Below, one piece after another: positions 35,708 through 39,974 of a stretch of DNA of 64,000 nucleotides; within the stretch, counting starts at the first letter, position 1, and each line of letters opens with the position of its first letter. The stretch spans positions 1,315 through 65,314 of the forward strand of contig JARKOQ010000149.1 in assembly GCA_029976005.1 (NCBI GenBank), given 5' to 3'. The notes beneath the pieces are model-generated. The model was not told where the DNA came from and searched no databases. It saw only the letters and a list, made by a program, of their open reading frames with translations. The stretch is from Aggregatilineales bacterium. Its GTDB lineage: Bacteria; Chloroflexota; Anaerolineae; Aggregatilineales; Ch27. The position numbers and the translations under genes were made by a program.

Positions 35708-35722
35708 TCGATGGGAGAAGGC

Positions 35723-36088
35723 ATGGCACACATCCGCCACACAGACGACTGCAAGCCCCTGGTCAGCCCGCACGGCGAGATCGTGTACGAACTGGCCGGC
35801 CGCGCCGCCGGAGGCGCGACCCAACACAGCGTCGCCCACATCGAACTGCCGCCCGGCAAGGCCTCGCTCAAGCACTTTCACCCGGTCGCGGAAGAAAGCT
35901 ACACCATCCTCAGCGGGACGGCGCGGCTCGTGCTCGACGGCGAAACCTACATCCTGAAACCGGGCCAGTGCGTCGCCATCCAGCCGCCCAACGTCCACCA
36001 GATTTTCAACGACGGGCCGGAAACGCTGCACTTCATCGCCGTGTGCGCCCCGGCCTGGACGCCCGACAACAGCACCTATCTCGACTGA
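35723..36088 (+). CDS. Cupin domain protein
   Basis: HFHPVAEESY..LSG and PPNVHQI cupin motifs. Confidence 0.88.
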   Translation: MAHIRHTDDCKPLVSPHGEIVYELAGRAAGGATQHSVAHIELPPGKASLKHFHPVAEESYTILSGTARLVLDGETYILKPGQCVAIQPPNVHQIFNDGPETLHFIAVCAPAWTPDNSTYLD

Positions 36089-36097
36089 GTGGGTTCC

Positions 36098-36556
36098 CTA
36101 CGGGCGGCGCCGGACTTCGAGCAGCCTGAGGTCGGCGTCATAGCGGAACGTTGCCTCGTACAGCGGGGCATGCAGGTCGAGGATATCCGGCAGAAAGACC
36201 CGGTCGGCCGGCGGCATGGGTAGCGCTGGCACGTCCCCCAGCGCCCACCAGCGCAGCTCGCCTTCGCGCGGGTCGGGCGCGCCGGGCTGCTCGAACCGGG
36301 TGACTGCATAGGCAAACAGGAGCCAGGCCCAGTCCGGGCGGGGTGAGGTCAGGGTCAGCAGCCCGCGCAGGCGCATCTCCCGCGCCTGAATCCCGGCCTC
36401 CTCCCGAATCTCCCGCCGGGCACAGGCGTCCGGCGCTTCACCGGCTTCCAGCTTGCCGCCGGGGGCCGTCCATAGCCCGCGATTTGGCTCCTTGGCCCGG
36501 TGCATGAGCAGCACCGCCCCATCCTTCAGGCAGTAGACCATCGTCGCCAGGATCAT
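36098..36556 (-). CDS. NUDIX hydrolase (8-oxo-dGTPase, MutT/MutX-like)
   Basis: Nudix box GGKLEAGEAPDACARREIREEAG; AAGGAG RBS. Confidence 0.88.
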   Translation of the reverse strand: MILATMVYCLKDGAVLLMHRAKEPNRGLWTAPGGKLEAGEAPDACARREIREEAGIQAREMRLRGLLTLTSPRPDWAWLLFAYAVTRFEQPGAPDPREGELRWWALGDVPALPMPPADRVFLPDILDLHAPLYEATFRYDADLRLLEVRRRP

Positions 36557-36574
36557 GACGGCCACTCCTTTCCC

Positions 36575-36608
36575 ACAACAAAACAGCCTGCCCGGTGAGG
36601 CAGGCTGT
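36575..36608 (-). terminator. Terminator closing the parA-partner unit
   Basis: ACAGCCTGCC/GGCAGGCTGT stem followed on the minus strand by TTTGTTG. Confidence 0.7.
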
Positions 36609-36628
36609 CACGGCATATCGTTGAAGTC

Positions 36629-37915
36629 CTACGTGTTCGAGTCCGCATCCTCGCCCGCGACCGGCTCCGCGATCTGAGCCTCCGGCTCGGTCTGGGTCGA
36701 GGGTTCGCCCGACCGCCGGGGAATCCGGCTCAGCAGGCCCAGGATCGTTTCGTGCCCGTACCCGGCCAGGAAACACACCACCCACAGCAGGAACGGATAC
36801 TGGCCCATCACCGGAGTCTGCGTCGATTCCAGCACCCCGATGCTGACGGTCGAGATGACCGCCACGCCGAACAGCAGGGCCGCCAGCAGGCCGCTCACCA
36901 ACCCCAGCACCGGACTCATCAGGTACCACGACACCTGAGAGGCCTGGAAGCCACGGGCCACCATCAGGCGCGGGGTCAGGTTGAAGCAGGCATTCACCAG
37001 CCCGCCCAGCATCCCAAACAGCGCCGGGTGATAGACGAACGCCAGGGTTTCCAGGCCGAGCGTCTCACTCATGAACTGCCGGAACAGCGGCTCCAGGGCC
37101 ATCAGGACCAGCCACAGGCCGAGAATCAGCAGAAGATAGATCACAATCTGCGGCTTATAACGGGCGATGTCGGCCTGCACCCGTTCCTGAACCGCAAGTC
37201 CGGTCCGCACCTGGGCCAGAATCGCGCGCGCTTCCTCGTAACTCGCCAGGTCCCTGATCGCCAGGCCGCTGGCCCGCTTGAGCTCGAGTTGGAAAGCGTC
37301 GATAGTCTCCGCGTCGGTCAGGGTCGTGCCGGCCAGCGCATCCTGAGTCGCGTGGATTTCCTGAAGCAGACTCTCCAGGCGCTCGTCGGTCACAAAGCGC
37401 GCCAGGACATCAGGGCCGCTCGACGCGCGTATAGGGGCCGCCTGGGCCGCCAGCGGCGCGGCTTCGGAAGCATCCGCCCAGGCTTCTTCCGCCTCGTCGC
37501 CCAGTTCTTCCGGGGCGCGCGGAACCAGGGCGGCTACTTCCGGCCGGGTGACGTACAGCAGCGTCACCGGCCGCCAGGGCCGCGCGGCTTCGGCCGCCGG
37601 GACGGCCTCATATTCGACCACGGAGTCGCTCTGGGCCGGGCCGGACTGCGCCTCGCCGGAAGCCGCTACGCTTTCCGTGCTCGTGGCGGCCATCTCAGCG
37701 CGCGGGCTGGCATGCAGCTTGGCGTACTCAGGGCCGGCCAGCCGGATCGCAGGCGTCTGCGTGGGCGACGTATCCGCCGAGAGCGCGCTCGCTTCCAGCA
37801 AGGGGTCTTCCGAACCCGACACGTCATCCTGGGGAGGCTGTGTGCCGCGCAGGATTTCCCAGCCCTTGCCGAGCACCGACGCTCGCGGCTTGGGTTCCTC
37901 AGGACGGTGACTCAT
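36629..37915 (-). CDS. Membrane protein coupled to parA (ParB-like N-terminal peptide, disordered linker, helical region, about 4 TM)
   Basis: ATG at 37915 overlaps the parA 3' end by 17 nt; N-terminal VLGKGWEIL; C-terminal TM block GMLGG...WYLMSPVLG...FLAGY. Confidence 0.8.
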   Translation of the reverse strand: MSHRPEEPKPRASVLGKGWEILRGTQPPQDDVSGSEDPLLEASALSADTSPTQTPAIRLAGPEYAKLHASPRAEMAATSTESVAASGEAQSGPAQSDSVVEYEAVPAAEAARPWRPVTLLYVTRPEVAALVPRAPEELGDEAEEAWADASEAAPLAAQAAPIRASSGPDVLARFVTDERLESLLQEIHATQDALAGTTLTDAETIDAFQLELKRASGLAIRDLASYEEARAILAQVRTGLAVQERVQADIARYKPQIVIYLLLILGLWLVLMALEPLFRQFMSETLGLETLAFVYHPALFGMLGGLVNACFNLTPRLMVARGFQASQVSWYLMSPVLGLVSGLLAALLFGVAVISTVSIGVLESTQTPVMGQYPFLLWVVCFLAGYGHETILGLLSRIPRRSGEPSTQTEPEAQIAEPVAGEDADSNT

Positions 37916-38669
37916 GGTTGATGATCTCCTGTGCCAGGGCACGGTAAGCCTGGGAGGCCGGGTCGTCCGGGGCGTATTCGAGCACGGGCTGGCCGACGAT
38001 CGGCGCTTCCGCCAGGGCCTCGCTGTACTGGACGATCGTGCTGAACGTGCGCGAGGGGAAGACCGTCCTGATCTCTTGCAGGACTTCCCGCGCATGCGGT
38101 GAGTCGGCCCGGTACAGCGTCGGCAGGACGCCCAGCAGGCGCAGCGACGGGTTGAAACCCTGCTGGATGCGCGCGGCCATGTCCATCACCGCCCGCACCC
38201 CGCGCATCGCCAGGTAATGGCACTGCACCGGCAGCAGGATCTCGGTCGCCGCCACCAGGCTGTTGGCCGTCAGAATATCCAGGCTGGGCGGCGTGTCGAT
38301 CAGAATGTAATCGAAGGGGATGGGGCTGCGCTCCAGGGCCTCGCGCAGGCGGTAGGCATCGCGGCGTTTGGCGCCAATCGTCACCGCCGCCGAGGCCAGG
38401 TCGACGCTGGCGGGAATCAGCCCCAGCCGCCCGCGCACGTTAACCACCAGCCGTCCCACCGAGGACCGCTCCGACATCAGCAGGGAATAGGCGCTGCGGC
38501 GGATGACGTACGGATCGAGTCCCAGCGAGGCCGTCAGCGCCGCCTGAGGATCAAAATCGATCAGCAGGACGCGCCGGTTCTGTTCCGCCAGGGCCGCCCC
38601 AAGATTCAAGACGGTGGTGGTTTTGCCCACCCCACCCTTCTGGTTCACGACCGCCAGTTTTCGAACCAT
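37899..38669 (-). CDS. parA: ParA/Soj family ATPase
   Basis: Deviant Walker A NQKGGVGKTTT, IDFDPQA, DYILIDTPPS and LAEAP motifs. Confidence 0.93.
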   Translation of the reverse strand: MVRKLAVVNQKGGVGKTTTVLNLGAALAEQNRRVLLIDFDPQAALTASLGLDPYVIRRSAYSLLMSERSSVGRLVVNVRGRLGLIPASVDLASAAVTIGAKRRDAYRLREALERSPIPFDYILIDTPPSLDILTANSLVAATEILLPVQCHYLAMRGVRAVMDMAARIQQGFNPSLRLLGVLPTLYRADSPHAREVLQEIRTVFPSRTFSTIVQYSEALAEAPIVGQPVLEYAPDDPASQAYRALAQEIINHESPS

Positions 38670-38711
38670 GTTTATTCTTTCCAAACCAGAATGAAACCAT
38701 AAACAAGCAGG

Positions 38712-38720
38712 AGTATAACA
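38712..38720 (-). promoter_or_regulatory. Extended -10 promoter for parA
   Basis: TGtTATACT on the minus strand about 45 nt upstream of the parA ATG, in an AT-rich gap. Confidence 0.55.
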
Positions 38721-38725
38721 CAGCC

Positions 38726-39169
38726 TCACAAACCGGGCTGGAGCGTCTCGCCAGCCAGACCTTCCCCGGCGGAAAGCCCTAACGGCTCGACCGAAAGCCG
38801 GCCTTCGAAATCCGCGAGTTGGACGCTGCCCGGCGTCAGGTGAAAGACCAGGTAGGCATCCGGCGGGACAAGCAGCGTCACCTCGGCGGTGGACAGGGTA
38901 CCCACCACCGGCCTGCGCTTGAGGACGAGGTAGACCCCTGCCTCGTCCCGTTCCGTGACCCATTCCCAGCCGAACGCCTGGCGCAGGTCACACTCGATCT
39001 GCACCCGCGCCTCCTGAATGCGGCGCACGAGCACCCGGCAGTGGCTGGCCCGCACGAAGACGGTCGTCGGGCCGCGCACCTCGTACGCGGCCACCCTGCG
39101 CTCCCGAGCCAGGTCGGGCAGCGAGCGCACGGCCGACAGAGTCTCCAGCGCGAGTTCGAGCATTCGCAT
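38726..39169 (-). CDS. Hypothetical protein (beta-rich, DUF4097/adhesin-like fragment)
   Basis: GGAGGG RBS; coherent codon usage; family similarity is weak. Confidence 0.65.
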   Translation of the reverse strand: MRMLELALETLSAVRSLPDLARERRVAAYEVRGPTTVFVRASHCRVLVRRIQEARVQIECDLRQAFGWEWVTERDEAGVYLVLKRRPVVGTLSTAEVTLLVPPDAYLVFHLTPGSVQLADFEGRLSVEPLGLSAGEGLAGETLQPGL

Positions 39170-39203
39170 GGTTCGCCCTCCTTCTCCCCCCAAACGGCCG
39201 GAA

Positions 39204-39974
39204 TCAGCCGGGATCAACTCCGGCCAGCCAGCCGCGCACGACTTCGCCCACCCGGCCGGGCTGCTCCAGGGGCACGAAATGCCCGCCGCCTTCCACAACG
39301 ACCAGCGTCGCCGCGCCCATCCGGCCGGCCAGGTCCTCGCCAAGCGCGACCGGCGTCACGCGGTCGCCCCGCCCCACAACCACCAGGGCCGGCATGGACA
39401 GCCCACCCAGCCAGCCGGTCGCGTCGAACCGGCCGCAGGCCAGCAAATCCGCCCGGAGCACCGCCGGATCGATCGCGGCCAGATCAGGCACGGCCGGGAA
39501 GGAACTCGGCATCGGGTCGGAAGCCTCCAGCCGCGCGTCGAACTCAGCCAGCGCCCGCTGAGACTCTGCAACCAGCCCATCCAGAATCGCCGCCGGGACG
39601 GGCAGCCTGGCCCCGCACCCGATCAGAATCAGCCCGGCGACGCACTGCGGCCTCATGCGCGCCATGGACAATGCAATCGCCCCGCCCATGCTGTGCCCGG
39701 CCAGAATGCACCGGCCGAGGCCCAGGCAATCCAGGAGGCCCACCATGTCGCCGGCATAGGCTCCGATCGAGTCACGCCAGGGCGGCGCGCTGCGCCCGTG
39801 ACCCGGCAAATCCGGCGCGATCACCCGCCGGCCGGGCAGCCGGCGCAGGGTCGCGGGCCAGTCCAGGTGGGACCCGCCCGCGCCGTGCACCAGCAGCACG
39901 GGTAGTCGCGGCGACTCTTTCAGGCCCTGATCGGCATACCAGAGGCCGATCTCACCGACCTGGGCAACCGGCAT
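39204..39974 (-). CDS. Alpha/beta hydrolase
   Basis: LVHGAGG, DLPGHGRS, GHSMGG nucleophile elbow and GGHF motifs. Confidence 0.92.
   Translation of the reverse strand: MPVAQVGEIGLWYADQGLKESPRLPVLLVHGAGGSHLDWPATLRRLPGRRVIAPDLPGHGRSAPPWRDSIGAYAGDMVGLLDCLGLGRCILAGHSMGGAIALSMARMRPQCVAGLILIGCGARLPVPAAILDGLVAESQRALAEFDARLEASDPMPSSFPAVPDLAAIDPAVLRADLLACGRFDATGWLGGLSMPALVVVGRGDRVTPVALGEDLAGRMGAATLVVVEGGGHFVPLEQPGRVGEVVRGWLAGVDPG

Follow-up and report, generated by a model that had tools for sequence, protein, structure and literature searches.

Positioning ATPases of the ParA type have been described as users of the nucleoid, and those of the MinD type as acting on the membrane through a targeting helix of their own. 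Many orphan ParAs have no known partner. In this study, a pair of genes was analyzed in a stretch of 64,000 nucleotides (the window) from contig JARKOQ010000149.1 of an Aggregatilineales bacterium (assembly GCA_029976005.1, 82% complete), where a Soj-like parA is followed by a gene for a 428-amino-acid membrane protein, referred to here as the partner, whose N-terminal peptide is referred to as the tag. The pair is a real, undescribed variant of the ParA-partner systems, and its family supplies an orphan ParA with a partner that has strong evolutionary support. The peptide behaves as a ParA tag and is found on three unrelated membrane anchors. No literature on this pair was found, most subscription papers lying outside the search. 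The host order is the Aggregatilineales (65 of 71 genomes at least 90% complete), the class is the Anaerolineae, and clade ParA denotes the ParA lineage of the window parA.

The chromosomal ParA (Soj)-ParB (Spo0J) system, as studied in M. xanthus (PMC12462528), resembles the pair in its Soj-like ATPase and its overlapping parA-partner operon, and the ParB peptides of the same genomes share with the tag a basic G-[KR]-G core as well as the offsets of a leucine and an acidic residue. Unlike ParB, the partner has no CTPase, helix-turn-helix, or parS, the leucines at positions 15 and 19 are not kept, a different docking site is predicted, the ATPase falls in a separate clade, and the DNA-binding arginines have been lost in the host order. 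In the McdA-McdB, PomXYZ, ParC-ParP, and PpfA-TlpT systems, an orphan ParA likewise has a neighboring partner, with a charged disordered N-terminus as the proposed ATPase contact and the rest of the protein bound to the cargo (10.1101/2022.06.09.495121; PMC11407121; PMC9178275). The window pair shares with this group an orphan ParA and a dedicated partner with a charged N-terminal peptide, but those ATPases are described as nucleoid-using, whereas here the partner is an integral membrane protein and the host-order ATPase is without the nucleoid-binding arginines. The partners in these four systems are soluble adaptors or receptors.

An effector helix at the Walker-box dimer edge is known from TP228 ParF-ParG and from MinD-MinE (PMC5393062; PMC12462528); ParG, however, binds plasmid centromeres, and MinD has its own membrane-targeting helix, which is not present in the window ParA. 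Membrane-associated proteins that capture a ParA-family ATPase include HubP/FimV, DivIVA/Wag31, PopZ, and PadC-bactofilin (10.1101/2023.09.20.558563; PMC9178275; PMC12704722). The partner has no sequence or family match to these landmark proteins, and it differs from them in being an anchor co-transcribed with one dedicated ParA and in carrying a ParB-like tip without the CTPase domain of PadC. HubP has a long acidic linker, as does the partner. Finally, PldP of Actinobacteria is a second chromosomal Soj-like ATPase outside parAB that is not stimulated by ParB and has a division-related phenotype (10.1101/2025.07.02.662783). It differs in that it keeps the arginines and is slightly stimulated by DNA, and no partner is named for it.

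The features of the unit, all on the minus strand of the window, were as follows.

38712..38720, minus strand: extended -10 element TGTTATACT of the unit, from sequence, conserved in the host order
37899..38669, minus strand: parA paralog, Soj-like, 256 amino acids, Walker A KGGVGKT, Pfam AAA_31
38103..38105, minus strand: codon for ParA D189, where the first DNA-binding arginine stands in B. subtilis (R189) and M. xanthus (R209), from alignment to 8ray_B
38016..38018, minus strand: codon for ParA A218, next to E217, where the second DNA-binding arginine stands in B. subtilis (R218) and M. xanthus (R238), from alignment
36629..37915, minus strand: partner gene, 428 amino acids, overlapping parA by 17 nucleotides
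37844..37885, minus strand: ParA-tag peptide, partner residues 11-24, family consensus R-A-S-[LI]-x-G-[RK]-G-x-[DE]-I-L-x-G
37421..37843, minus strand: acidic Ala/Pro/Glu-rich linker, partner residues 25-165, variable in length and likely disordered
37169..37420, minus strand: predicted cytoplasmic three-helix bundle, partner residues ~166-249, continuous with the first membrane helix in the AlphaFold2 model
36710..37168, minus strand: predicted four-helix membrane domain, partner residues 250-402, from hydropathy and the model, with invariant glycines and an invariant proline
36575..36609, minus strand: intrinsic terminator-like hairpin with a T tail, 12-pair stem at 36609-36582

The tag was observed to follow the ATPase through its losses. 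In the host-order genomes that encode a partner but for which the clade ParA was not found, the tag was gone in nine out of nine (one partly masked), and five further genomes of the class demonstrated the same joint loss. Across 94 genomes, labeled by hand, 72 had both the tag and the clade ParA, 17 had neither, three had the ParA only, and two had the tag only (one locus, L152, was left out of the accompanying tree). With the tag pattern unchanged, a held-out set of 40 further genomes gave a tag in 19 of 25 genomes with the clade ParA vs 2 of 15 without it. After correction, these counts became 20 of 24 and 1 of 15: one genome was moved because its match was a canonical ParA (G038), another because an adjacent ParA had been missed by the genome search (G057), and a third with a 5'-cut was dropped (G067). 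Degenerate relics of the tag were visible by eye in six of 14 held-out negatives. When independent pairs of genomes differing in ParA status were taken on a FastTree tree of 132 rows, the tag differed in the same direction in a mean of 8.2 out of 12 pairs, in the opposite direction in none, and was tied in 3.8 (median p 0.008). On the question raised by the initial annotation of whether homologs keep the peptide, a ParB-like peptide was found to follow the clade ParA.

The membrane anchor, in contrast, was replaceable. In the genus g155 (L199-L204), ParA is followed in all six genomes by a short protein in which the tag and an acidic linker lead to a single membrane helix at the C-terminus. 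In the family f41, ParA is followed in five of six genomes by another tagged one-helix membrane protein, with an SdrD_B-like C-terminus in the two that were scanned, while the four-helix partner sits elsewhere in the genome and is also tagged. The constant unit is ParA with a peptide, a linker, and a membrane anchor, and the tag moves between unrelated anchors. The four-helix protein itself persists without ParA and without the tag in 31 of 132 genomes, which points to a separate job of its own.

Three side observations concern these anchors. The f41 protein is unrelated to the partner and includes a coiled-coil-like region (L116:2572-4011 on the minus strand, L119, L134, L273, and L279), and at L134 (G224) the clade parA is split over two frames beside an intact tagged neighbor, which may be an assembly error. 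The parA of g155 is divergent from rnpA-yidC. In the family f85, a distant form of the four-helix domain follows an AIG2/ChaC-like domain within a fusion protein (the latter by a Pfam match in the single protein scanned), and the locus has no ParA; ten f85 matches were read as fusions (L175-L178, L180, L181, and L183-L186), and this arrangement may hint at the function of the four-helix domain.

The elements of the unit that the initial annotation had read from the DNA were confirmed, including the deviant Walker A motif (Pfam AAA_31 match, E 6.7e-47), the quoted start of the partner, and a dedicated two-gene arrangement with a 17-nucleotide overlap between a conserved extended -10 and a terminator-like hairpin. 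An extended -10 was found 33-52 nucleotides 5' of parA in 25 of 30 host-order loci (0.3% of shuffles), and a -10 core in 29 of 30 (6% of shuffles); since the promoter scanner requires a -35, the extended -10 of the window was not called by it. Promoter, overlap, and peptide are conserved in at least six families. The contig sets consulted for expression had a small RNA share or were only presumed to be RNA, and gave no information on the unit. The proposed conservation of the gene pairing was also upheld: parA lies directly upstream of the partner in 38 of the 61 class genomes read (out of 63 that bear a partner; counted by hand) and not in the other 23, in 14 of the 40 held-out genomes, and every one of 30 ParA-first loci of the host order has the partner or its start directly downstream.

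Of 251 class genomes, 108 encode the C-terminal domain of the partner at E<=1e-15, only one of them in more than a single copy; in the host order, the domain is present in 47 of 70 genomes. At E<=0.001, it occurred in 19 of 301 genomes of the phylum, mostly as weak matches, and relatives numbered 588 representatives among 1.84 billion. The full ParA-partner pair was found outside the class in one genome (G326). Two near-identical partner copies ~6.6 kb apart were observed at G179:C27:884857-892138; the partner is tagged there, although the clade ParA was not found in that genome.

The acidic Ala/Pro-rich linker, helical segment, and about four membrane helices that had been proposed for the partner were supported by charge count, hydropathy, and an AlphaFold2 model. 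The linker is Ala/Pro/Glu-rich, carries a net charge of -15, and is not conserved. The model of residues 165-402, with a predicted local distance difference test score (pLDDT) of 89, shows three helices in a bundle and, after them, four helices of membrane length; pLDDT values of 89 and 88 were obtained for the predicted bundle and membrane helices. Both termini are likely cytoplasmic (N-in, C-in), judging from the distribution of charge. No Pfam or NCBIfam family was assigned to the window protein or to 66 homologs, no family was returned by a sequence search of the PDB, and no DNA-binding domain was found in the partner. All homolog names among the matches listed were hypothetical or blank, and a search of the ESM Atlas gave no usable named match, with three unnamed clusters among the matches listed. 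A Foldseek search with the model gave nothing at E<=0.001 and no convincing solved match. With VIA-align, the best match of the membrane domain was to G-protein-coupled receptor helices (Z 7.4, root-mean-square deviation 4.5, 116 residues aligned), which is in the range of common arrangements, and the three-helix bundle matched generic bundles only.

The window ParA has an intact signature K11, Walker A K16, D38, D40, and Walker B D125, scores 160 bits against the AAA_31 cut-off of 27, and is most similar in the PDB to 4pfs, 8ray, and 1wcv (E 1e-49 to 1e-51). K11, K16, D40, and D125 are intact in every full-length host-order ParA. In a quick tree with a midpoint root (115 of 122 rows, with seven partial or frameshifted rows left out), 27 ParB-linked ParAs formed one clade with a support of 99, while the partner-linked ParAs and their unlinked orthologs formed a second clade of 78 rows with a support of 91, inside which the host order was nested with a support of 98. 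On this tree, the clade ParA is a lineage separate from the ParB-linked chromosomal ParAs. Two residues mark it, R156 and H192 (80 and 81 of 82); at these positions, all 29 ParB-linked ParAs carry E and L. Against the MinD family, the window ParA scored 46.8 bits (cut-off 212.9), and a true MinD is encoded on contig C85 of the host; it also has no MinD-type C-terminal membrane-targeting helix, its C-terminus ending ~5 residues past the last helix. These scores and features place it outside MinD/FlhG. In five families (f5, f10, f27, f49, and f53), the clade ParA sits not beside the partner but directly behind a second, divergent ParA that forms its own clade with a support of 100 (L117, L118, L121-L127, L262-L264, L266, L267, and L276-L278), which suggests a tandem or heteromeric ParA pair.

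The initial annotation had described the tag as a ParB-type LGKG peptide. Its basic G-[KR]-G core proved to be conserved beyond chance and ParB-like: G16 and G18 are present in 64 of 64 homologs, K or R at position 17 in 61, and a comparison with 21 ParB N-termini of the class gave shared residues at G16, K/R17, G18, acidic 20, L22, and basic 11. The likeness did not extend to leucines 15 and 19, which occur in 21 of 21 ParBs but in only 5 and 6 of 64 partners, so that the LGKG of the window is partly luck, and equivalents of these leucines are critical in M. xanthus ParB (PMC12462528). Instead, the partners have L/I/V at position 14 (55 of 64) and I at position 21 (46 of 64), with a hydrophobic face of 14/21/22. 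The strict ParB pattern of PMC12704722, (L|F|I)G[KR]G(L|F|I), occurred in three of 90 partners but not in the window protein, which reads LGKGW; some partner families are much closer to ParB than the window protein is. The peptide is therefore related to the ParB motif but distinct from it. A relaxed motif, written after the 90 N-termini had been viewed, was found in 77 of them vs 1.1% of shuffles, and in 64 of 67 parA-adjacent partners, the remaining three being visible by eye with one frame-shifted beside an assembly gap. No other convincing tagged protein was found in the host assembly, where the next best match scored 12.9 bits vs 45.6. A candidate co-variation of peptide W19 with ParA A135 was dropped, as A135 is present in 26 of 27 host-order ParAs outside the family f3 with W or R in the partner, and f3 itself combines L135 with W.

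In the modeling of a ParA dimer with ATP, Mg, and two peptides, as had been proposed, the peptide docked with a model score of 0.90 vs 0.12 for the best control. At least 91% of contacts were shared between runs, and the partner pLDDT was at least 73. The score mark used is reached by 116 of 157 solved pairs and 2 of 215 mismatched pairs, although it is only a rough guide here. The modeled interface includes ParA residues 152-169, 176-178, 191-207, 221-225, and 232, of which 221-225 touch the peptide docked on the opposite subunit; V14, G18, I21, and L22 of the peptide are buried as the closest contacts, and K17 lies near E199. As the model saw the alignment, contacts at the conserved positions 14, 18, 21, and 22 represent consistency rather than independent proof.

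The docking site of ParA-binding peptides is itself a matter of disagreement in the structural literature (PMC12462528). In M. xanthus, nuclear magnetic resonance and mutagenesis support a ParB pocket composed of a hydrophobic pocket next to Walker B and an acidic site of H4/H6/H7 (PMC12462528). The modeled site excludes the equivalents of this pocket (96, 130, 132, 135, and 172, mapped through 8ray_B), and the equivalent of M. xanthus E117 is T in the window ParA. By inference, the modeled groove seems to coincide with the region of the C-terminal helices (H10/H11 by the M. xanthus naming) where ParG is reported to act on ParF. The claim of a ParB-type activator peptide on a membrane protein thus gained a predicted docking on ParA, but at a modeled site outside the ParB pocket. 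A second docking site for a ParB-like peptide becomes testable with this family, as does a ParA peptide switch that works without DNA.

The same system also offers a natural comparison between a ParA with DNA-binding arginines, in most orders, and one without them, in the host order. R189 and R218 of B. subtilis have been named as DNA-binding arginines (PMC3778016), and M. xanthus ParA R238E is without non-specific DNA binding (PMC12462528). The window ParA has D189 and A218 at these positions. A basic residue at 189 was observed in 29 of 29 ParB-linked ParAs, 27 of 49 clade members of other orders, and 0 of 33 from the host order, where 23 are acidic; at 218, the corresponding counts were 28 of 29, 49 of 49, and 2 of 33. 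A basic residue at either position was kept in 29 of 29, 49 of 49, and 2 of 33, respectively, and the charge of the DNA-face patch was +2.8 (n=29), +2.5 (n=49), and -2.1 (n=33). The loss of both arginines in the host order indicates that ParA likely acts there at the membrane and not on the chromosome, and canonical nucleoid binding is probably absent in this organism. By sequence, the nucleoid would qualify as a positioning matrix in the other orders of Anaerolineae, where nucleoid spacing is plausible, but not in the host order, where it is unlikely. The suggestion of the initial annotation that this ParA acts over the nucleoid was therefore not supported in this organism.

The apparent lack of a parB was confirmed within limits, as searches of the incomplete host genome with ParB_N and TIGR00180 gave no match. 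For the parS 16-mer of the initial annotation, there was no match within two mismatches (six at three mismatches), although the genome is incomplete and a lineage-specific parS was not searched for. The separate canonical parAB locus expected elsewhere in the genome was found neither here nor in 68 of 71 host-order genomes; the parB matches in the other three scored 68-127 bits, while the best elsewhere scored 167-207. SMC was found in 0 of 71 host-order genomes vs 5 of 5 in other orders (MukB, MksB, and ScpAB were not searched for). The clade ParA was the best Soj-like match in 45 of 71 host-order genomes, and the families f2 and f64 were mostly without any Soj-like ParA. In contrast, among the 63 class genomes with a partner, 60 encode a canonical parB, which sits beside its own parA at most loci read. 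With a membrane protein as neighbor and a ParA outside the ParB-linked clade, the pair is placed outside chromosomal ParABS. The apparent lack of both parB and SMC in the host order is a question for chromosome biology.

The reading favored here is that the membrane protein is the dedicated partner of a second ParA, which acts through peptide capture and hydrolysis and, in the host order, off canonical DNA; as a whole, it is somewhat more probable than its negation. The flexible cytoplasmic tail would present the peptide, which would dock on the ATP-bound ParA dimer in a groove at the dimer edge (ParA ~152-169, 191-207, and 221-225). Docking would hold ParA at the membrane, much as HubP captures its ATPases, and likely trigger ATP hydrolysis, as the ParB, MinE, and McdB peptides do. 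The peptide very probably binds this ParA, and if it binds, a stimulation of the ATPase is probable. In other orders of Anaerolineae, where the arginines are kept, ParA may coat the nucleoid and the tagged protein may be spaced by a ratchet like those of ParB and McdB, while in the host order ParA may serve as a landmark switch that moves from the cytoplasm to the membrane anchor, or to some other surface that is not DNA, and back. A possible downstream role would be in the organization of the envelope, the division site, or filaments. The most far-reaching version is tentative and rather doubtful: an Anaerolineae-wide ParA system with an integral-membrane activator and a portable tag in a non-ParB groove, which in one order without ParB and SMC has come off the nucleoid and sets the pattern of a membrane anchor, or of some other matrix that is not DNA, with no helix of the MinD type. 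If true, this would add a third kind of matrix to those of ParA/MinD positioning.

Several observations weigh against the favored reading. ParA occurs without a tag call in seven of 132 genomes and the tag without a ParA found in three, and every absence rests on incomplete genomes. A new R187 in 22 of 27 host-order ParAs outside f3 leaves room for an altered DNA-binding face, and the charge of the whole protein is not acidic (P0002, +4). The complex model was run with custom alignments and ligands, which lie outside its calibration, and may echo solved ParA-peptide complexes; the clade-diagnostic residues R156 and H192 lie in the modeled site, but without significant enrichment (2/7 diagnostic positions, p 0.21); and the hydrophobic residues of the M. 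xanthus ParB pocket are largely kept (V96, L130, I132, and F172), which makes the modeled pose uncertain. Additionally, peptide stimulation of ParA requires DNA in M. xanthus (PMC12462528), so that a DNA-blind ParA might go unstimulated.

Among the alternatives, a nucleoid-bound ParA that spaces or tethers the four-helix protein or its complex by a ParB/McdB-like diffusion ratchet is unlikely in this organism. The invariably basic position 218 of other orders (49/49) agrees with it, R187, R156, and R159 could make a new basic face, and the four-helix protein without ParA and tag in 31/132 genomes is cargo-like in having its own job. However, position 189 is basic in 0/33 (23 acidic) and position 218 in 2/33 of the host-order ParAs, with a patch charge of -2.1; R238E alone abolishes DNA binding in M. 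xanthus (PMC12462528); and the four-helix domain can be replaced by one anchor helix while ParA and the tag remain. Since the arginine losses are common to the order and favor acidic residues, they look selected rather than random. This bears on the proposal that the pair is a decaying remnant in the host order, its peptide a passive anchor for ParA with no ATPase cycle or positioning, which we consider improbable. While losses have been repeated in the host order (ParA and tag gone in 9/9 genomes checked, the membrane domain in six) and the window genus sits on long branches with an unusual A95, T97, and D131, no full-length host-order ParA has lost any of the catalytic residues K11, K16, D40, and D125, and promoter, overlap, and peptide are kept in at least six families.

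Slightly less probable still is a pair that replaces a lost ParABS/SMC and segregates the chromosome or anchors it at the membrane, perhaps through a DNA-binding adaptor. The failure to find parB in 68/71 and SMC in 71/71 host-order genomes fits this proposal, as does a clade ParA that ranks first, or stands alone, among the Soj-like proteins in 45/71. The genes also lie near rnpA-yidC in three families, a block that is usually origin-proximal; however, dnaA is ~0.6-0.7 Mb from the pair in the closed genome G013 and on another contig in four other genomes. The pair coexists with parB in 60/63 class genomes and hence did not arise as a substitute, and two host-order families are mostly without the clade ParA too (0/12, and one weak match among 11). 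Furthermore, the DNA-binding residues were lost in exactly the host order, the partner has no DNA-binding domain, and no other convincing tagged protein was found in the host assembly. That the peptide resembles ParB by chance and the genes are merely syntenic, with proteins that do not interact, is scarcely credible: the strict ParB pattern in only 3/90 and the 23/61 class partners not beside parA are outweighed by the co-loss in independent pairs, the held-out test, the same peptide on unrelated anchors, and the pass of the complex model.

Outside the unit, no conserved same-strand third gene or cargo gene was found across the families whose neighborhoods were compared. In the window, an open reading frame without a Pfam match (38726-39343, minus strand) lies directly 5' of the promoter, while the terminator is followed by a NUDIX hydrolase gene (36098-36565, minus strand) and a cupin gene (35711-36088, plus strand) that converges toward it. 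A cupin gene downstream of the pair recurs in four families, and the recurring neighbors, mostly on the opposite strand, included murA-like, nicotinate phosphoribosyltransferase-like, nicotinamidase-like, cupin, and rnpA-yidC genes. Additionally, the locus L215 (G520:C26) has a further orphan ParA whose gene overlaps a long one; the latter encodes a basic, helix-like N-terminal peptide followed by sensor-like sequence.

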